From an uncultured Gammaproteobacteria bacterium (lineage in GTDB: Bacteria; Patescibacteriota; Patescibacteriia; UBA2591; CAYTBZ01): DNA of 64,000 nucleotides. The DNA is taken from positions 33,980 to 97,979 of the forward strand of contig CAYTBZ010000001.1 of the NCBI GenBank assembly GCA_964436275.1, read 5' to 3'. Both the position numbers and the translations under genes were made by a program. The notes beneath the pieces are model-generated. The model was not told the origin of the DNA. It searched no databases and saw nothing but the letters and a program-made list of their open reading frames with translations. Below, in pieces: positions 43,492 to 51,999 of the stretch. How positions within the stretch are numbered: the first letter of the stretch is position 1; every line of letters starts with the position of its first letter.

Positions 43492-45666
43492 TTAATTATC
43501 CTTAACTGGTAAAGTAAAATAAAAAGTTGAACCCTTACCTTTCCCTGGGGACTCAGCCCAGATTTTTCCGCCTTGCACCTCAATCAATCTTTTACAAATA
43601 TAAAGGCCTAAACCAGAGCCCCAAGGATTAACTTTATTATTTCTTAGACGAGAAAATTTCATAAATAATTTCTTCTTCTCTTCTGGACTAAAACCAATAC
43701 CTGTGTCTTTGACATAGACAAGAACCTCTTTTTTCTTTTCATCATACTTAAAGCCAACTGTTGCCCCTCCTTTTTCAATATATTTAATTGCATTGTCAAC
43801 AATATTTCTTAAAACTTCCCTTGTTTTCTCATAATCAAAATAAAATTCAGGAACTTCCTTTTTAGGTTTTTCAACCTTTAAATAAATACCCATTTTTTCA
43901 GCCAAAACTTTTAATTCGGATACCACATCATTGACTAACTCTTCTATATTCCCCTTCTCTTTCCGCACAGTAATTTTACCTGCTTCAATATGGGCAACAT
44001 CTAAAAAACTACCGATTAATTTTATTTGCCTTAAAGTCGCTTGATAGATATCATTAGCCACTTCTAATTGTTTTTTGTTTAATTTTCCATAATCGCCCCT
44101 TAAAAGTGCTTTAGCGTACCAACGTAAGATAGTCATTGGGGTTCTTAACTGATGCGAGACGATTCTTAAAAATTCTGACTTTGCCTGGTCTAATCTTTTT
44201 AATTCAGCATTAGCCGCTCTTAAATCTTTGGTTGCCTGGGCTACTTTTATTTTTAATTCTTCAGCAAAACGTTGTGTTTTTCTGAAGAGAAGGGCATTCT
44301 CAATAGAAATAGACGCCTGAAGAGCCAAGTTTTCCAAAAGACGAATATCTTGAACAGTAAAAGCATCACCAGATGCTTTTTCTCCTAAAAGAATCATCCC
44401 ATAAATTTCCCCTTTACTTACCAAAGGTAAAACCATGCTAATTTTTGACTTTGATAATATCTTTTTTAATTTTTCTTTCTCTTCTGGTGATAAAAGAATG
44501 ATTTCAATTTCCTGTAAAAGAATTGTCTGCTTTAACTTTTTTAAAAAGTAAAAAAGGGATTCTTTAAATGGAGAAATTACTAAACTGTCAGGTTTTTTCT
44601 TTAAAACTATTAAGTTTTCCTCACCCGGTTCTTTAACAATAACGCCAAACCTCTCAATATGTAGAGTTTCGTTAATTGTCTTATAAATTAAATTGACAAT
44701 ATCATCTAAATAAAATATCTTCGGCAGGGCTTGGGTTAATTCTTCAATCTTTCGACGGGTATCATATAAACTGGCAAAAAGATATTTATTGGCTAATTTT
44801 TCAAAAAATGATTTTATGGGAAAGAACACACTTATTGAAAGCAAAATTGCTACTGAATCAACTAAAAGCAAAAGCCCGGTTATCTTTTCACCCAAATATC
44901 GACTTACTAGCCAGACCAGTAAAACTCCCAATCCTCCAGCAACACCAAGCGAAAGCCCATAAACCGTTCCTCTTCTAACAACCACTCGAATATCAAAAAG
45001 CCGATAACGAGTAATGGCGTAGGCTAAGATGGTAACAAAAAACAATCCCGATAAAAAAGGAAAAGGAAGAATAGGGATTTCATAAGCAGGTAAATATCCT
45101 AAAGGGCCTATTAAAATTAGAATAAAGAAAGCCAAAAAGATATAATAAGATTGATTTTTCTTTATTGGCCCTGCTGATTTTTTATAATATCTGTATAAGT
45201 TAATAATAAATAGAATGAGATAGATAGAAAAGTAAATTAAAAATACATGATGAAACAATCTAGCCTTAGTATGTACCCCCCACTTATATCTGAATAATCC
45301 GCTTACAAAATAGTCAGTTCTACTAAGTATCAAAAAAAAGATAGACAATAAATATCCTAAAACTACACAAGATCTTTGTAGTTTCTCTCTGATTTTCTGA
45401 GTAAAAACTACTCCAAAGTGATAAAATAATGCGGGGATAAAAACAACGCTTCCGTAAATAAAACGGTCCCAAAAAATCGCGGATTCTCCAGCTGTGCTTC
45501 TAAACATTTTAAATGTGCCAAATAACCAATTACCTACCGCAATTGTTATGAAAAAGAAAATTAAATTGAGGGTCGTAACCTTCTTTCTGAAAAATACAAT
45601 AATACCAAGTGCAAAGACAAAAAGAGCACTTATTAAAGGAATAAGAGAGATTAAATATGTATTCAT
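43492..45666 (-). CDS. Sensor histidine kinase with N-terminal multi-TM sensor region, GAF-like domain, HisKA and HATPase_c
   Basis: H-box RIVSHQLRTPMTIL, and N, G1 (DTGIG), G2 (GSGLGL) boxes. 724 aa. Confidence 0.85.
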   Translation of the reverse strand: MNTYLISLIPLISALFVFALGIIVFFRKKVTTLNLIFFFITIAVGNWLFGTFKMFRSTAGESAIFWDRFIYGSVVFIPALFYHFGVVFTQKIREKLQRSCVVLGYLLSIFFLILSRTDYFVSGLFRYKWGVHTKARLFHHVFLIYFSIYLILFIINLYRYYKKSAGPIKKNQSYYIFLAFFILILIGPLGYLPAYEIPILPFPFLSGLFFVTILAYAITRYRLFDIRVVVRRGTVYGLSLGVAGGLGVLLVWLVSRYLGEKITGLLLLVDSVAILLSISVFFPIKSFFEKLANKYLFASLYDTRRKIEELTQALPKIFYLDDIVNLIYKTINETLHIERFGVIVKEPGEENLIVLKKKPDSLVISPFKESLFYFLKKLKQTILLQEIEIILLSPEEKEKLKKILSKSKISMVLPLVSKGEIYGMILLGEKASGDAFTVQDIRLLENLALQASISIENALLFRKTQRFAEELKIKVAQATKDLRAANAELKRLDQAKSEFLRIVSHQLRTPMTILRWYAKALLRGDYGKLNKKQLEVANDIYQATLRQIKLIGSFLDVAHIEAGKITVRKEKGNIEELVNDVVSELKVLAEKMGIYLKVEKPKKEVPEFYFDYEKTREVLRNIVDNAIKYIEKGGATVGFKYDEKKKEVLVYVKDTGIGFSPEEKKKLFMKFSRLRNNKVNPWGSGLGLYICKRLIEVQGGKIWAESPGKGKGSTFYFTLPVKDN

Positions 45667-45720
45667 AGAAATAAAATAATAACAATTTGTTTACATTATC
45701 TAGTATATCAATAGTAAACA

Positions 45721-45753
45721 AAAAATAAAAGAGGGGATTAATCAATCCCCTCT
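45721..45753 (-). terminator. Rho-independent terminator of the oxidoreductase gene (AGAGGGGATTGATTAATCCCCTCT + TTTATTTTTT on minus strand)
   Basis: 10-bp GC-containing stem followed by T-run when read on minus strand. Confidence 0.6.
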
Positions 45754-45762
45754 GCCTATGTT

Positions 45763-46809
45763 CTATCTTTTCGTTATAGTAACTTTTTTGAAAAAGTCCA
45801 TATCAACTAACTTTCCAAAAGAGGTAAAAGGAGCATGAAGAAAACCATATTTCCTTCCTAGAACAAGAATCCTTTCCATATAAGAAATATCTATTTCTCC
45901 GATATGATCAGAATGATCATTTTCTAAACACTGAATTATTGCTTCCGCCCAACAAGAAAACGTTGTCCCTGACCGGACACCAGGTACTCTTACTCCTAAT
46001 TCTATATTGGGGATATTTACCATGGCTCCGTCAATTTTAAGTAAATTCGGTCTAATCTGACGAATTATTTCATAGCTAGCTTTTGAAAGATTAGGAGGCA
46101 CAGAAACTTCATAGACCACTACTCGTTTATCTTTGTTAATATAATCTGCTTTTATAAGTGAATCGGGGTGACTTGTTGCTGTTACAATAATATCTGCTGG
46201 ATATATATCGCTTAAAGAAACAGAGGCTTTTATTTTCGCTGCTCGAGGATAAGGTAAATTACTTATAAATCTCTGGAGTCGTGTTGGATTGTGCCCTATT
46301 AAAATTAAAGACACGTCTCTCTTACATAAAGACAAGGTCAGGGCTTTACCTATCAACCCATATGCTCCGACAATAGCTATGGTAAACTCTTCTAAAGAGG
46401 TGCCCATAGCTTCTGCAATTAAATCTAAACCCTCCAGGGAAACTCCGGCCGCATAACTATCTCCGTGGGTGATAGCAGCAGTAACGCCTTCTTGAATAAC
46501 AAGCCAACGTCCTTTATCAGTAATAGAAGAAGTTAATGAGGTTAAAGCAACAAACTCTACCCCTAAATAATTTTGGGCCCAGATTACAGCATCCAAAATA
46601 TCTTTTCTGACTTTCCTTATATTACCCGGTGACATCATATCTTTTCCGGTCACACCTAGTGTAATCACATAACCCTTAGCTCTATCAAAAATATTAAATT
46701 CACCCCATACTTTATATGCGGGAAGATTTCTTTTACTTTCGCACTCCGGAAATACGGCTGGTATATCTGATTTGTCTCTTAAATTTGTAATTATAGCTAC
46801 CTTTCTCAC
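45763..46809 (-). CDS. NAD(P)-binding Rossmann-fold oxidoreductase, shikimate-DH/glutamyl-tRNA-reductase-like C-terminal half, novel N-terminal half (GTG start)
   Basis: IAIVGAYGLIGKAL dinucleotide motif, ADIIVTATSHPDSLI...VVVYEVSVPPN resembling AroE/HemA NAD domains. Confidence 0.45.
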   Translation of the reverse strand: MRKVAIITNLRDKSDIPAVFPECESKRNLPAYKVWGEFNIFDRAKGYVITLGVTGKDMMSPGNIRKVRKDILDAVIWAQNYLGVEFVALTSLTSSITDKGRWLVIQEGVTAAITHGDSYAAGVSLEGLDLIAEAMGTSLEEFTIAIVGAYGLIGKALTLSLCKRDVSLILIGHNPTRLQRFISNLPYPRAAKIKASVSLSDIYPADIIVTATSHPDSLIKADYINKDKRVVVYEVSVPPNLSKASYEIIRQIRPNLLKIDGAMVNIPNIELGVRVPGVRSGTTFSCWAEAIIQCLENDHSDHIGEIDISYMERILVLGRKYGFLHAPFTSFGKLVDMDFFKKVTITKR

Positions 46810-46930
46810 CTTTTCCTCCTTTTCTTATTTTCTCTTTCCTTAACTTAAAAAACTTAAAAAATAAAATACGCCCTCCTTTCTTTTTCCTCCTAACTTTCAA
46901 AGAACAAAATTGTAAGGTTTCTTTTCTTTT

Positions 46931-46960
46931 AAAAATAGCATAATTTTTGTGTTTTGTCAA
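46931..46960 (-). promoter_or_regulatory. Promoter TTGACA-N17-TATTTT with long leader for oxidoreductase gene; paralogous to 48169-48197
   Basis: Minus-strand reading TTGACAaaacacaaaaattatgcTATTTT. Shared downstream TTTGTTCTTTGAA motif. Confidence 0.4.
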
Positions 46961-47009
46961 TTTCCTGTACTAGAAGGGTACATAGGTAACACTTTTAGGT
47001 ATTAGGATT

Positions 47010-47067
47010 GATGGGTCGCACCCGTCAAGCTTGATGGGTGCGACCCATCAAAACAGTGCGACCCATC
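47010..47067. repeat. REP doublet (near-palindrome GATGGGTCGCACCCGTCAAGCTTGATGGGTGCGACCCATC) plus extra GTGCGACCCATC copy
   Basis: Near-identical to the 40-bp palindrome at 48797-48836. Confidence 0.7.
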
Positions 47068-47145
47068 AAAACATGTAAACCTTTAAATAATAAAGAAAAA
47101 CTTTATAATCTTGTTCATCTAAGAAAATTTTTCTCTTCTCTAAAT
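47068..47145 (-). pseudogene. Fragment of RAYT/IS200-like transposase gene (codons ~23-45, frameshifted)
   Basis: Reverse strand translates to LEKRKIFLDEQDYKVFLYYLKVYMF*, about 95% identical in DNA to 48855-48922. 11-nt deletion relative to the intact copy. Confidence 0.55.
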
Positions 47146-47146
47146 G

Positions 47147-47190
47147 ATGGGTCGCACCCATCAAAAAAGACCGGGAAAATCCCGGTCTAA
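47147..47190 (-). terminator. REP unit GGTCGCACCCATC + intrinsic terminator hairpin GACCGGGAAAATCCCGGTC (TTTTTTG on minus strand)
   Basis: Lies 38 nt downstream of stop of 47228..48109. 42-nt identical to 49102-49143. Confidence 0.6.
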
Positions 47191-47227
47191 AAAGAACTTA
47201 TTTCAGCCTCTCAACTTTGAGAAATTT

Positions 47228-48109
47228 TTATTCCTCCTCTATTCCACTGTCAAACTCAATTTTATACTTACTCATTTGGCTCAAGTCGTAATCAGTATAA
47301 ATATAACCTTCAAATGTCTTCGTCTGACCATTACTGAAATTAGAAATAATAATAAGTTCAGATTCAAGAAGATTATCATCCTCATCATAGACACTGATTC
47401 TGAAATGCGCTAAAAGATAATCCTTACCAGAGTTATTAGTCATTTCACCTATTACTTTAATATACCCTACTCCAGAGTCCTTAAAATGCACATTTTTATA
47501 AAAAAATCCTCCGGCTATACCCGTAGCTTCTTCCTCTGTGATCCCTCTTTTAAATCCTTTTGTCTTCTTCTGGATATCCCGAAACGTCTCTTCAGTTTTA
47601 TTAATCGTCTTCTTAAACTCTTCCCATCTATCCTTATCAAGTACTATGGTAACCTTTTGGGCATCTATTTTATTAACACTAACTATAGTTATGTAAGGAC
47701 CTTTGACTCCGACCTTCTTCTCAAATTCCTTTTCAAACCAAATACCAATAACCAAAAAAACATTTTCTCCTCTTATTCTATCTTCTACCGAACCAATGAT
47801 AAGAACTGAATCAGCGAGTTCCTGATAGTTCTCTTGAGTTTCCTGAAACGACTTATCTGTCTTACTAACTATCGTCTTAAGCTCTTCCCAACTATCCTTA
47901 TCCAAAAGTACAACAACTTTCTGGGAGTCAATATTATCAACATTAACTATACTTATAAAAGGACCAATCTTTTGTGCAAGGCCAGCAACCATACCTAAAT
48001 AATTCTCCTTTAGAACCATATCTTTCACTACTCCAGTAACGATAAGAGAATCAGGTTCAGCAATTAATGAGATAAATAAAAAGAGGAGAACTAATAAAAC
48101 CTTCTTCAC
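47228..48109 (-). CDS. Secreted hypothetical protein with two tandem ~90-aa repeat domains (GTG start)
   Basis: Signal-peptide-like MKKVLLVLLFLFISLIA, SD AAGGAGG. Internal DNA tandem duplication (about 47560-47700 vs 47830-47960). Confidence 0.55.
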   Translation of the reverse strand: MKKVLLVLLFLFISLIAEPDSLIVTGVVKDMVLKENYLGMVAGLAQKIGPFISIVNVDNIDSQKVVVLLDKDSWEELKTIVSKTDKSFQETQENYQELADSVLIIGSVEDRIRGENVFLVIGIWFEKEFEKKVGVKGPYITIVSVNKIDAQKVTIVLDKDRWEEFKKTINKTEETFRDIQKKTKGFKRGITEEEATGIAGGFFYKNVHFKDSGVGYIKVIGEMTNNSGKDYLLAHFRISVYDEDDNLLESELIIISNFSNGQTKTFEGYIYTDYDLSQMSKYKIEFDSGIEEE

Positions 48110-48168
48110 TTTTTACCTCCTTTGTTTTTATTGTTTTTCATCCTTTTCAAAGAACAAATTTTTCCTTA

Positions 48169-48197
48169 AAACTAGCACATCTTAAGTATCTTGTCAA
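48169..48197 (-). promoter_or_regulatory. Promoter TTGACA-N17-TAGTTT for 47228..48109, abutting REP flank
   Basis: Minus-strand reading TTGACAagatacttaagatgtgcTAGTTT, then TTTGTTCTTTGAA motif at 48146-48158. Confidence 0.4.
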
Positions 48198-48201
48198 ATT
48201 C

Positions 48202-48275
48202 TTCGTCAGGGTTTCGTCAGGGTCGCACCCTAAAAAACCAGGTCGCACCCTAAAAAACCGCGCCCTAAAACACCT
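48202..48275. repeat. Flanking repeat array: (C/T)TTCGTCAGGG x2 then 20-bp units CAGGTCGCACCCTAAAAAAC x2 plus degenerate third
   Basis: Direct tandem repeats immediately downstream of the RAYT gene. Confidence 0.7.
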
Positions 48276-48281
48276 TAAAAG

Positions 48282-48989
48282 TCATTCTAAAGTCATTTCT
48301 TTTAAAATCTCTTTAGAATCAATAATATAGTTCTCAACAAACTCTTGATAAGAAGCAAAAGCTTTTATGTCTTTATCTCCGGTTGTTTTAAAATATTGGA
48401 GAATTTCTTCTGGATGAACCCAGGAAGTTTTTCGTTCGCCTATATAATCTGGATAACTTGAATAAGAATACTCAATTAGTTTCTTGGGATCTGATCCTTT
48501 TATTAACTCCAATGGGTTACAGTGGATATATCGGGAAAGATGAAGAAGATAACTTTCTTTATCAATCAAAACTGCTTTATAACGCCCTTGGAAAAGAGAA
48601 CTAACCCTTTCATATTTTTCATTAAAATATCTAACATAAGCATTTGCCAACCGTTTCATAAATTCTCTCATTGCTCTTTCATCAATCTGTTTTAACATAA
48701 AATGAAAATGGTTTGGCATTAAACAATACGCTAAAAGTTTAACCCTTTTATAAAGATCATAATCATTACCCAGTCGAAGTATATTAAATGGTATTTGATG
48801 GGTCGCACCCGTCAAGCTTGACGGGTGCGACCCATCAAAACATGGCTCACTAAGATAAACCTTTAAATAATAAAGAAAAACTTTATAATCCTGTTCGTCT
48901 AGGAAAATTTTTCTCTTCTCTACTCCACGATTATAAACGTGATAAATTCCTCCGCTTACATATTTTTTGACTGTATTTTTAGAAGGCAT
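48282..48989 (-). CDS. REP-associated tyrosine transposase (RAYT, IS200/IS605-like HUH Y1 family)
   Basis: YHVYNRG...IFLDEQDY..FL N-terminal motif, HUH motif LMPNHFHFML, catalytic Y region (GRYKAV). 235 aa. Confidence 0.75.
   Translation of the reverse strand: MPSKNTVKKYVSGGIYHVYNRGVEKRKIFLDEQDYKVFLYYLKVYLSEPCFDGSHPSSLTGATHQIPFNILRLGNDYDLYKRVKLLAYCLMPNHFHFMLKQIDERAMREFMKRLANAYVRYFNEKYERVSSLFQGRYKAVLIDKESYLLHLSRYIHCNPLELIKGSDPKKLIEYSYSSYPDYIGERKTSWVHPEEILQYFKTTGDKDIKAFASYQEFVENYIIDSKEILKEMTLE
48797..48836. repeat. Perfect 40-bp palindrome (REP inverted doublet) inside the RAYT ORF, encoding DGSHPSSLTGATH
   Basis: GATGGGTCGCACCCGTCAAG|CTTGACGGGTGCGACCCATC, exact reverse-complement halves around AAGCTT. 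Confidence 0.8.
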
Positions 48990-49048
48990 AAATAAATAAA
49001 AACAATAAAATAAAAATAGTTTACTTTATTATACCACAAAAAGTGTGC

Positions 49049-49143
49049 TTTCGTCAGGGTTTCGTCAGGGTGCGACCTAAAACCAGGTCGCACTAAAACC
49101 AGGTCGCACCCATCAAAAAAGACCGGGAAAATCCCGGTCTAAA
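49049..49143. repeat. Flanking repeat array: TTTCGTCAGGG x2, GGGTGCGACC (inverted), GGTCGCAC, GGTCGCACCCATC, then terminator hairpin GACCGGGAAAATCCCGGTC
   Basis: Upstream of RAYT. Doubles as terminator of the AMP-binding gene (stop at 49153). Confidence 0.7.
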
Positions 49144-49152
49144 GGGGCCTAT

Positions 49153-50706
49153 TTAGCCCATTATTGTTTTCTTCATTATTTTTACTATGCTTTTCCTCCC
49201 TCCTTTTGAATATAAATTTAATATCTCTATTCTAGAAGGAACCTCTTCTGGTTTAAGCAAAGAGCGGCAGTAATTTATCAGATCCTTCTCGGTTAGTTCA
49301 GATTCCCTCCTCAAAATAACCAAAGCAATAACCTCTTCTTCAATCTGCTTCTTCTTTGTCCTCTTACCCACTACTATTGCCTGCTTCACTCCTGGATGCG
49401 ATTCCAAAACCATCTCTACCTCTTGCGGAGAAACCTCACCACCAAAAGAAGAATAAATAAGTTCATTCCTTATCTGGTCAGTAATAATTATACTTCCCCC
49501 GTTCTTTTTACCTGCTAAACCGCTTCGCCAAAATCCATTTTCCCTTTCTGCTTCTGTTCGCACTTTATCTCTCCAATATCCTCTAAACACTTGAGGTCCG
49601 GCAACCAAAAATTCTCCCATTTTTACTCTTACTTCCATGCCCTCTACTTCTGAAAAAGCGCCTCCGCTCAGACCTATAAACATAGGAAAGGCCTCTGGAA
49701 AGCCAAGAATACGGATAATTTCTACTTCTCCGGCTAATTTCTCATAGAGATTCTTCTCCAGGAATGGATTAAAACTCTGCTCCAACACGCCGATGAACCG
49801 CAGGAAAGACAGATCTGGTCTTTGGAAATCCTTTATTAATTCATTAAGAAGCCCTGGCGTTGTCCAAAGAAAAGAGTGATTTTTCCAGCGAACCAGTCCT
49901 CTCTTCAATTCATCCGAATAAAGTTTGGGGAAAACTACTGAGGAACATCCGGCTGTCAAGGAGAAAAGTAAACTAACCAACCCAGGATATTCAAAAGGAG
50001 CAAAAACGAATGCCCTTTCTTCAGGAGAAGAAAAAATCTCTGGCCGATGCTGAAGGAACCATTTACCCAATTGATAAATTGCTGCCGTGACATTGCTATG
50101 ACTTATCCCTACTAGTTCTTTACCTCTTGTTTTATAAATTATCACTGCGGCATCTTCTTCTGGAACAATATTTACTGGCGAGAAATCAGGGCTATTCTCT
50201 GCTACTAGAAGAGGAAAATGGAAAGAAGAGGAAGATTTGAATGGTCCAGGAGAGAGATGAACATTCACAATGTGCTCTAAAGAACTTCTCCTGCTCTTTC
50301 TTAGAAAGTCAAAGTCATCAACCTTATCATCTGAACAAATAGCTACTTTTGCCTGAGATTTAGAAACTACTTCTTTAATCTTCCAGGTTCTCTCACGAGG
50401 ACCAAGTAAAATAGCCACCGCACCTATCCTATTCAATGCCAAAAAAGAGATAACAAACTGGAAGCAATTAGGCAAACAGATAATCACCCGGTCACCCTTT
50501 TTCACCCCAATCTTTTGCAAAGCATTGGCAAAGCGCTGACTCTTTTCCTGTAATTCTTGATAACTCATTTTCTTTCTATCTACTCCAGAAATAAGGGCTG
50601 GCTTTTCCGGATTATACTTAACCATATCATCGAAAACAGCATAAGGAGGGATAAAATGAAGATAAATCTCATCAAATAATCTGTGTACATCTCTCGCCTC
50701 GGCCAT
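49153..50706 (-). CDS. AMP-dependent synthetase/ligase (acyl-CoA synthetase / adenylation-domain family)
   Basis: AMP-binding superfamily layout. 517 aa. Confidence 0.75.
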   Translation of the reverse strand: MAEARDVHRLFDEIYLHFIPPYAVFDDMVKYNPEKPALISGVDRKKMSYQELQEKSQRFANALQKIGVKKGDRVIICLPNCFQFVISFLALNRIGAVAILLGPRERTWKIKEVVSKSQAKVAICSDDKVDDFDFLRKSRRSSLEHIVNVHLSPGPFKSSSSFHFPLLVAENSPDFSPVNIVPEEDAAVIIYKTRGKELVGISHSNVTAAIYQLGKWFLQHRPEIFSSPEERAFVFAPFEYPGLVSLLFSLTAGCSSVVFPKLYSDELKRGLVRWKNHSFLWTTPGLLNELIKDFQRPDLSFLRFIGVLEQSFNPFLEKNLYEKLAGEVEIIRILGFPEAFPMFIGLSGGAFSEVEGMEVRVKMGEFLVAGPQVFRGYWRDKVRTEAERENGFWRSGLAGKKNGGSIIITDQIRNELIYSSFGGEVSPQEVEMVLESHPGVKQAIVVGKRTKKKQIEEEVIALVILRRESELTEKDLINYCRSLLKPEEVPSRIEILNLYSKGGRKSIVKIMKKTIMG

Positions 50707-50771
50707 TTCAGACCTCCTTTCTTGTTTTTTTCAGGTTTTCAAGGTGCTTTTTCTGCTTTTCTATTAAAAAA

Positions 50772-50800
50772 ATTGTAAAAAGAAATTCCCTTGTTGTCAA
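50772..50800 (-). promoter_or_regulatory. Promoter TTGACA-N17-TACAAT for AMP-binding gene, overlapped by hairpin CCCTTGTTGTCAAGGG and inverted TTGTCAA/TTGACAA
   Basis: Minus-strand reading TTGACAacaagggaatttcttttTACAAT. Confidence 0.45.
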
Positions 50801-50832
50801 GGGTAGAGAATTTGACAATGAAGTGTAACCCT

Positions 50833-51981
50833 TCAAATCCCAGATAAAACTTCTAAAGTTTTTCGAGCGGTTTGTTGCCAATCAAACTTTCTCGCCTGAA
50901 TCAACCCCTCTTCACTCAACTTTTCTCTTAACTCTTTTTCTAACAATAACTTTTTCATTGCCTCTTTTAAAGAAATTAAATTATCTGGGTCAACTAAAAT
51001 TCCGGCTGAGTTAACTAACTCTGGCAAAGAAGAGGAAAAACTTGTAATTACTGGACAGCCGCAACCCATTGCTTCTAAAACAGGAAAGCCAAAACCTTCA
51101 TAAAAAGAAGGGTAAACAAATAAGGTGGCTAAGTGATAAAAAGCGAATTTATCTTTCTCTGGAAGATATCCAATAAAACGAATATTATTTTTATGCTTAA
51201 CTTTTTTTATGGCCTTCTGGACTGTTCTCCAAAGCCAACCCGGAGAACCAGCAATAAGTAACTGTCTTAAAGAATTATCATCCCCTCTTTCCCCTATCTC
51301 TTCAATCAATTTATCAAAAGCCAAGATAAGTCCAGAAATATTTTTCCGCGGCTCCAACCTTCCTAAACAAAAAATAAATTCTTTAGGTAGGTTGTATTTT
51401 ATTTTGACTCTATTTATTGTATCCTCATCAATCTTGTCTTTAAACAAACCAGAATGAATAACAACAATCTTATCCCTTTTTAAACCATATAAATTAACTA
51501 AATCGTCTGCTGTACTTTGGGAAACACTAATAATTTTATCAAATTCTTGGGTCAACTTTTTTAGATTAACCAGTTTGTGCCAAAGACAACGCTTAAAGGT
51601 AAAAAATTCAGGAAATTGCTCAAAAGTTAAATCATGAACTGTAATTACTTTATAGCAATCTGAGGAAAGAGAAATAAAATGCTGATTAGGAAGAAAAAAA
51701 ACATCTACCCCGCCTTTGATTAACTTATCAACTTTGGGTAGATGAAAAAATTTTTGAGATAAATTAAAAAATTTATTTGGCCAACGAAAACCAATAAATT
51801 TAACTTGAGGATAATCCCATTTAGGTAAATTTTCAGTAACCGATTTCAGAGAATTATAAAACAAAAAATACTCATTTTTTTGGTCAATCTTAAAAAGATT
51901 ATCCAAAAGATGAAAAGTATATTCCCCTACTCCAAAGTAAGGTTTTTCCATTAAAGGCCGAATATCAATCCCGATTTTCAT
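50833..51981 (-). CDS. Glycosyltransferase family 4 (GT-B)
   Basis: EGFGFPVLEAMGCGCPVITS motif. 382 aa. Confidence 0.8.
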   Translation of the reverse strand: MKIGIDIRPLMEKPYFGVGEYTFHLLDNLFKIDQKNEYFLFYNSLKSVTENLPKWDYPQVKFIGFRWPNKFFNLSQKFFHLPKVDKLIKGGVDVFFLPNQHFISLSSDCYKVITVHDLTFEQFPEFFTFKRCLWHKLVNLKKLTQEFDKIISVSQSTADDLVNLYGLKRDKIVVIHSGLFKDKIDEDTINRVKIKYNLPKEFIFCLGRLEPRKNISGLILAFDKLIEEIGERGDDNSLRQLLIAGSPGWLWRTVQKAIKKVKHKNNIRFIGYLPEKDKFAFYHLATLFVYPSFYEGFGFPVLEAMGCGCPVITSFSSSLPELVNSAGILVDPDNLISLKEAMKKLLLEKELREKLSEEGLIQARKFDWQQTARKTLEVLSGI

Positions 51982-51999
51982 TGATTATTCAAAAATTTT

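Follow-up and report, generated by a model that had tools for sequence, protein, structure and literature searches.

The segment at positions 47008-47191 of the analysed DNA stretch (64 kb; hereafter the window) is a 184-bp relic of a tnpA locus. It was derived from a locus whose intact copy is located 1.8 kb away, at about 48200-49143. Three relic blocks are collinear with this intact locus and 96-100% identical to it. The relic is probably a second copy of a hairpin-bounded Y1 transposase element resembling a REPtron, which was moved or duplicated as a unit and trimmed at its REP hairpins.

Structure of the relic

Block 1 (47008-47055, corresponding to 48795-48842; MAFFT and repeat finder) comprises 48 nt with 98% identity. 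Block 2 (47076-47142, corresponding to 48856-48922; repeat finder) comprises 67 nt with 96% identity and three mismatches. Block 3 (47150-47191, corresponding to 49102-49143; repeat finder) is identical at 42 of 42 positions and contains a REP hairpin as well as a second, G+C-rich hairpin of 9 bp, which on the minus strand precedes a T6 tract. Since this third collinear block is present, the relic extends over the entire segment 47008-47191. A preceding sequence-only reading had proposed a second copy of the transposase locus including the intragenic REP doublet, and the 48-nt and 67-nt blocks bear this out. Identity in the pairwise alignment reaches far past the palindrome; it is neither low nor confined to it. 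The region 47010-47145 considered in that reading is indeed homologous. The true copy is larger, however, as it includes the REP-plus-terminator module at 47150-47191, which the reading had overlooked.

In gene sense, the relic is composed of the terminator, a complete REP, 3 nt, codons 23-45, a duplicated unit and the doublet (Table 1). The terminator hairpin has 9 pairs, among them 6 G-C, and a T-tail (terminator scan). It is identical to 49120-49140 and located 39 nt past the stop codon of a 293-aa gene. The single REP adjoining the gene fragment forms a hairpin in the DNA fold. At the other end, homology to the intact gene extends to the outer foot of the doublet and ceases no more than 2 nt from the palindrome. 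About 50 nt 3' of the doublet, the promoter of a dehydrogenase-like gene follows (46960-46932, promoter scan). The near-palindrome consists of two inverted 17-nt REP hairpin units that flank AAGCTT and folds as ssDNA with -24.3 kcal/mol (z = -7.7). Its sequence is GATGGGTCGCACCCGTCAAGCTTGA[C/T]GGGTGCGACCCATC, and the one C/T difference from the intact palindrome, already noticed in the sequence-only reading, could be assigned to position 47034 (T for C).

The translated gene fragment, EKRKIFLDEQDYKVFLYYLKV, is identical to E24-V44 of the intact protein. It had been labelled a 5' fragment, which has to be corrected: the fragment starts at codon 23 and has no start codon, so that it is an internal gene piece. 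Altogether 179 bp (48923-49101 in the intact copy) are missing here; this stretch holds the upstream REP array with the promoter as well as codons 1-22. The whole region 3' of the doublet is absent, too, i.e. 513 bp of the gene and the second array. As the reading had stated, 11 nt of the gene (TCTTAGTGAGC in sense) are absent between blocks 1 and 2. Their loss causes a frameshift and brings a TGA in frame, which closes a 32-aa ORF (47066-47164, minus strand). This ORF and a 50-aa ORF on the plus strand (47038-47190) were treated as spurious. The relic is non-coding and incapable of making protein. The extra GTGCGACCCATC unit, also reported before, is present and is one copy of an 18-nt perfect tandem duplication (TRF: period 18, 2.0 copies, 100% match). 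All three differences between relic and gene are synonymous transitions (p about 0.05). This was rejected as a source of information on the relic, since purifying selection on the intact copy alone would suffice.

Table 1. Features of the relic, the intact element and the gene between them (positions in the window; strand given where assigned)
Feature	Position	Strand	Remarks
Relic REP doublet	47008..47055		40-bp near-palindrome 47010-47049; right-hand (gene-sense 3') relic boundary
18-nt tandem duplication, GTGCGACCCATCAAAACA x2	47038..47073		gives the extra unit at 47056-47067
Transposase gene fragment	47076..47142	-	second base of codon 23 to second base of codon 45
Single REP hairpin GATGGGTCGCACCCATC	47146..47162		7-bp stem, 3-nt loop; exact match to the REP consensus
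Intrinsic-terminator hairpin AGACCGGGATTTTCCCGGTCT, then T6	47168..47188	-	left-hand (gene-sense 5') relic boundary
293-aa lineage-specific gene	47228..48109	-	between relic and intact copy; context, not part of the repeat
Downstream REP-arm array	48202..48262		TTCGTCAGGGT x2, then GGTCGCACCCTAAAAAACCA x2
Intact Y1/HUH (RAYT-type) transposase gene	48282..48989	-	235 aa; HuH N93-H-F-H96, catalytic Tyr motif Y154-I-H-C-N-P
In-frame REP doublet, perfect 40 bp	48797..48836		D52 to first base of Q65; peptide DGSHPSSLTGATH
Gene segment matching the relic	48856..48922	-	codons 23-45
Predicted tnpA promoter	49028..49057	-	CTGACG, 18-nt spacer, TG-n-TATAAT; overlaps the upstream array; missing from the relic
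Upstream REP-arm array	49049..49115		TTCGTCAGGG(T) x2, then CTAAAACCAGGTCGCA x2, then REP
REP + terminator-hairpin module	49102..49143	-	counterpart of 47150-47191; 42/42; 9 nt past the AMP-ligase stop codon

The intact element and its transposase

The gene-sense order of the intact element after the AMP-ligase gene is as follows: the terminator (49140-49120), one REP, and an array and ACCCTGACGAA x2 with the promoter. They are followed by tnpA, which contains the internal doublet, by another array that resembles the first and is oriented likewise (48262-48202), and by the promoter of the 293-aa gene. The tnpA promoter scored 10/12 in the promoter scan with an extended -10 box, a match to the consensus only. 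The core 9-mer GGTCGCACC occurs nine times in the 64-kb window (0.02 expected), always within 47014-49110. Two units are located downstream of tnpA (48221 and 48241) and two upstream (49069 and 49102). Perfect tandem microduplications of REP arms were detected at all three sites, i.e. in both arrays and in the relic (TRF). An Rfam scan of 46700-49300 yielded nothing near the gathering scores, and hence no known RNA family accounts for the hairpins. An identical 22-nt direct repeat was observed on both sides of tnpA, at 48202-48223 (TTCGTCAGGGT x2) and at 49050-49071 (ACCCTGACGAA x2 in gene sense). Each copy adjoins or overlaps the -35 box of a predicted promoter, and the repeat could be a candidate operator or binding site.

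The 235-aa protein matches Pfam family Y1_Tnp (PF01797) above the cutoff (E = 7.6e-10), with the match covering residues 81-156 only and a linker splitting the domain. With the NCBIfam equivalog REP_Tyr_transpos (RAYT, NF047646) it scores 42.3 bits and remains under the curated cutoff of 80. The transposase has 7919 homologues of about 220-235 aa, most if not nearly all of them from MAGs of Patescibacteria. Both N93-H-F-H96 (HUH) and Y154-I-H-x-N are invariant in the homologue alignment. A phmmer search against PDB sequences yielded no match, and only the fold comparison was successful: the AF2 model (mean pLDDT 77, pTM 0.80) has its best Foldseek match in the PDB with E. coli TnpA-REP bound to a REP hairpin (4ER8, E = 1.8e-5), followed by the TnpA proteins of ISDra2 and IS608. 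By domain match, motifs and predicted fold, the intact gene encodes a member of the Y1/HUH superfamily of RAYT type. In front of the start codon (48990-49027), no recognizable Shine-Dalgarno sequence is present; neighbouring genes have GGAGG upstream. This would be consistent with low translation of the transposase.

The intact doublet folds as ssDNA with -27.8 kcal/mol (z = -11). Residues 55-64 encoded by it have a pLDDT below 50, and the model indicates that the doublet codes for a disordered surface loop between helix 32-46 and the HUH strand. A homologous locus, L087, has the same REP in its flanks and 55% protein identity. At the position of the doublet it encodes TPPDNKKK and has no hairpin. 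Because the hairpin is absent there, the doublet is an in-frame insertion particular to this lineage, which adds a net 11 residues.

Related contigs and strain variants

An independent ENA assembly is 100% identical to the window over 45282-51989 (6.7 kb). The relic junction was found in three further assemblies, among them a strain variant with 96.8% identity and another one with 99.9% identity. An assembly artefact, or a chance resemblance due to REP sequences alone, had to be considered because REPs interrupt short-read contigs of further samples (L099 terminates at 47162 and 48823), so that the repeats evidently disturb assembly. The match, however, includes 67 nt of unique coding sequence, so that chance has next to no probability. 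Since the junction recurs across assemblies, an artefact is excluded. The 18-nt duplication is absent from the 99.9%-identical assembly of another sample (L101, 1100-1291). It is a recent duplication at a REP arm that is polymorphic in the population.

The closest relative is a JGI metagenome contig (L001). It contains the 3' part of tnpA with 82% protein identity (about 80% by tblastn) and a flanking histidine kinase gene whose product is 59% identical to that of the window. Its terminator-plus-REP module (hairpin, T-tract and REP) is identical at 42 of 43 positions and is located behind a different dehydrogenase-like gene. Here, terminator and REP are fused directly to arm 2 of the doublet, and the 3' part of tnpA with a premature stop codon follows. 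L001 is thus the complement of the relic, with the 5' part of tnpA removed between two REPs. We also considered GAAGAGTCAGAAAAT after the REP arm of L001 as a remnant of the codon-24 junction of the relic. This was rejected, since L087 shows ordinary linker codons at this place (KSQK / NKKK).

In the window (43492-51981), the order is AMP ligase, tnpA, 293-aa gene, relic, dehydrogenase-like gene and histidine kinase. In L001 (1-5325), it is dehydrogenase-like gene, tnpA remnant, AMP ligase and histidine kinase. The ligases and the dehydrogenase-like proteins of both are 31-34% identical, the kinases 59% and the tnpA 3' parts about 80%. Gene order and identities together suggest either cassette exchange or element transfer. 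Passage of the element between lineages is suggested because the element is far more similar than the flanking kinase.

Origin of the relic

The left boundary, the foot of the terminator hairpin, is shared by the relic, the intact copy and L001. Each of them lies behind a different gene: the 293-aa gene, the AMP-ligase gene and the different dehydrogenase-like gene, respectively. This boundary shared in three contexts speaks for a discrete unit bounded by hairpins and against duplication of an arbitrary segment. The downstream ends differ: the intact copy ends with the array, the relic with the doublet followed by AATCCTA. The same 7 nt are found after the downstream REP of L001. Among the rearrangement endpoints in the relic, in L001 and in the 18-nt duplication, all but one are at REP units. 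The exception counts against the explanation preferred here. It is the junction of REP, ATT and codon 23, for which the intact copy has no REP partner at 48922. This means that at least one deletion endpoint was not defined by a hairpin.

According to the preferred explanation, a second copy of the hairpin-bounded unit would have arrived behind the 293-aa gene, and deletions anchored at REPs would then have trimmed it down to the relic. Trimming might be due to the Y1 transposase cutting and rejoining at the hairpin feet, or to replication slippage or recombination between hairpins. Both the order of these events and the enzyme responsible are what we infer from the present-day arrangement. 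An empty site was sought with a 96%-identical dehydrogenase-like protein (P0121), but upstream of its gene the 1.5-kb contig comprises 47 nt, not enough for this purpose; the 293-aa protein has no informative homologues. Neither an empty site nor an excised circle nor a target-site signature was found. This counts against the preferred explanation, as do the differing downstream ends and the absence of REPs from the rest of the 64-kb window and 9.4 kb beyond.

The earlier proposal of a past duplication or transposition of the element with its internal hairpin holds insofar as a non-functional copy is present. As to the kind of event, the boundaries argue for a hairpin-bounded unit rather than a plain segmental duplication. 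In the latter case, a segment of 1.8-1.95 kb from the terminator through the 293-aa gene would have been duplicated in tandem and then have suffered random deletions in which hairpins played no role. The two copies are in fact direct repeats 1787-1952 bp apart around a unique segment, an X-Y-X layout that a tandem duplication with subsequent loss can produce. Yet this requires a breakpoint that falls on the foot of the terminator hairpin, and this foot is the unit boundary in the unrelated context of L001, too. A later 1.6-kb deletion ending exactly at the doublet would be needed in addition, and the microduplications centred on REPs would be left unexplained. Such a duplication is quite improbable.

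A deletion of the 3' two-thirds of the gene, as assumed in the sequence-only reading, is one option for the right-hand side of the relic. The stop of homology exactly at the outer foot of the doublet fits a deletion from REP to REP and an alternative element end equally well. In the case of an alternative end, the intragenic doublet would have served as surrogate right end, and a mini-element of about 350 bp composed of terminator, REP, array, 5' part of tnpA and doublet would have moved behind the 293-aa gene. The 3' two-thirds would never have been deleted there, and the only later changes would be the 179-bp internal deletion, the 11-nt deletion and the 18-nt duplication. The exact stop of the relic homology at the doublet speaks for such a transposition. 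L001 with terminator and REP joined to arm 2 of the doublet and the 3' part of tnpA resembles a resealed donor, and the family frequently has intragenic hairpins with the same sequence as the flanking ones. On the other hand, the relic is not the clean reciprocal of L001, since array, promoter and codons 1-22 are missing from it. Furthermore, AATCCTA common to relic and L001 weakly suggests that a true right end had once been present and that the 3' part of tnpA was deleted between REPs. Alternative-end transposition is a close rival, yet rather unlikely compared with arrival and trimming of a complete hairpin-bounded unit.

REP hairpins in relatives

The REP hairpin of this system has the sequence GATGGGTCGCACCCRTC. 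Its foot, GATG/GACG...CATC/CGTC, differs from the canonical GT[AG]G of RAYT systems. The sequence-only reading had proposed a search for further partial copies as a means to reconstruct the element boundaries. In the 64-kb window and 9.4 kb beyond, no REP was found outside 47.0-49.15 kb, and tblastn with the transposase detected one intact copy and one relic in the window. A search for the exact 40-mer in the GTDB representative genomes, which do not include the source species, yielded no match.

A metagenome scan for GATGGGTCGCACCCRTCAA yielded 12 contigs, of which 10 have a low G+C content. A RAYT homologue with three flanking REP copies is encoded on one of the 12. Several others have REPs 15-25 nt past the 3' ends of genes and lack a transposase in the vicinity; one WGS set accounts for two of them. 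Low-GC contigs of this kind (among L083, L084, L086 and L090-L094) carry the 17-nt REP GATGGGTCGCACCCATC as single unit or doublet and no transposase in the fetched stretch. In L087 and L090, a REP directly follows a terminator-like hairpin. The hairpin family is thus dispersed in relatives, probably at low copy number.

To assess the family, 80 homologous loci (L003-L082) were taken from GTDB genomes, 78 of which were used in a shuffling control. At 68 of the 80 loci, the two 120-nt stretches on either side of the gene have G+C-rich 9-mers in common. At 27 of the 78 Patescibacteria loci, the gene itself matches its own flanking hairpin over 12 nt or more, with the ORF intact. Codon-shuffled genes yielded 0.25 such loci on average, and the flanks of another locus yielded one. 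The internal copies cluster at residues 50-68 and 139-169. By these comparisons, in-frame hairpins within the transposase gene are a family-wide property in Patescibacteria.

Relation to known systems

REPtrons consist of a RAYT gene (TnpA-REP) with flanking REPs (Nunvar, 2010, PMC2817692; Ton-Hoang, 2012; Messing, 2012, 4ER8, PMC3479197). The system described here shares the class-2 motifs (NHFH, YIHxNP), the best structural match 4ER8 and one short GC-rich hairpin on both flanks of the gene. In related genomes, the same hairpin is found in short intergenic gaps past gene 3' ends. In contrast to REPtrons, the flanking units are direct tandem arrays instead of inverted pairs, the hairpin foot is GATG/GACG, the protein has 235 aa with a long C-terminal tail and an NCBIfam score below the cutoff, and 74 kb of this genome revealed no dispersed copies. 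E. coli TnpA-REP cuts and rejoins REP ssDNA (cited in PMC6006769). The present system is a variant of the known REPtron-like kind, and the relic is an ordinary one.

In-frame REPs inside the tnpA-REP gene have been described for TnpA-Y1 subclass 2.4, corresponding to Bertels group 4 (Quentin et al., 2018, PMC6006769), and were called unique to this subclass (PMC6006769). Likewise, the intra-ORF REPs found here are identical to the flanking ones, maintain the frame and are located in a peripheral variable region. The motifs are not those of subclass 2.4, however: by-eye comparison with Table 1 of PMC6006769 revealed FQ for WQ and YIHCNP for YIxNNP. In addition, the protein has 235 aa, and the hot spots precede HuH (aa 50-68) and follow the Y motif (aa 139-169).

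Subclass 2.1, also designated TIRYT, is characterized by NH[YF]H, FQ and Y[IV]HLNP, by an SS motif in the tail and by a median length of 238 aa, and it was reported to be without associated REP-like sequences (Quentin, 2018; De Nocera, 2013, PMC3733652). NHFH, LFQGRYK, YIHCNP, YSYSSY and the length of 235 aa resemble this subclass by eye. Since the motifs were compared by eye only, the placement of the family in subclass 2.1 by motifs and length is provisional. Unlike in subclass 2.1, 68/80 loci share a GC-rich hairpin sequence between their flanks.

A general precedent for in-frame insertion exists as well: REPs in coding regions are known (PMC3733652), and Rickettsia palindromic elements (RPE) are reported as in-frame palindromic repeats in coding regions (Ogata, 2000, as cited in PMC3733652). 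By analogy, the doublet would be an in-frame palindrome accommodated by a tolerant loop, with the protein probably remaining functional. In contrast to RPE, the host gene is the presumed transposase gene of the element itself, and the 40-bp doublet is shorter than RPE-1 insertions.

IS200-like elements (subclass 1.1; IS200/IS605 family) resemble the system as hairpin-bounded Y1 elements with a terminator-like left end, no obvious ribosome-binding site and frequent decayed partial copies. The left end of IS200 reportedly bears a terminator-like hairpin ahead of the transposase gene. However, IS200 TnpA has about 150 aa with Y[IV]ENQ and is present in many near-identical copies. The protein described here has 235 aa with YIHCNP and occurs as one intact copy and one relic in 64 kb, which does not correspond to IS200.

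Neighbouring genes

The 293-aa protein has a C-terminal FxLYD domain (NCBIfam FxLYD_dom), and its gene contains an internal duplication (47611-47638 versus 47875-47902, 93%). In the databases, only the protein itself and one partial match with 52% identity were found. By this search, the gene is an ORFan. A gene for a dehydrogenase-like protein ('Shikimate_DH-like', 348 aa; 45763-46809) and the AMP-ligase gene (49153-50706), both on the minus strand, are located near the element. Homologues of the 348-aa protein are labelled fatty aldehyde-generating acyl-ACP reductase by JGI. In both the window and L001, the dehydrogenase-like gene is found near an AMP-binding ligase gene. Both genes possibly form a small lipid or acyl-activation module.

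Biological meaning

The relic itself is a dead fragment of small importance, an ordinary remnant of a mobile element, and its context is more useful. It may still affect its surroundings. Its terminator plausibly serves now as terminator of the 293-aa gene, and its strong ssDNA hairpin (-24 kcal/mol), which precedes the next promoter, is another plausible influence. As relic and intact copy are direct repeats, they could mediate a 1.8-kb deletion.

It is a doubtful idea that the in-frame intragenic hairpins are functional alternative ends, with the enzyme cutting at hairpins within its own gene in addition to those in the flanks. If so, partial-gene mini-elements like the relic, truncated donors like L001 and shuffled neighbour cassettes would be expected. 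Around the element, the genome of the window and L001 have the AMP-ligase and dehydrogenase-like genes in permuted order. The result would be a REP system that limits and fragments itself, in a subclass believed so far to be without REPs.

The natural products found here, i.e. the relic, the truncation in L001 and the polymorphic 18-nt duplication, could guide biochemical tests of the cut sites of the enzyme. The published phenomenon of REPs inside tnpA-REP genes is extended here to a family with different motifs and insertion sites. The reduced genomes of Patescibacteria thus have a RAYT-type system whose cognate hairpin lies in frame within the transposase gene and whose observed rearrangements are anchored at these hairpins, with the one exception named above.
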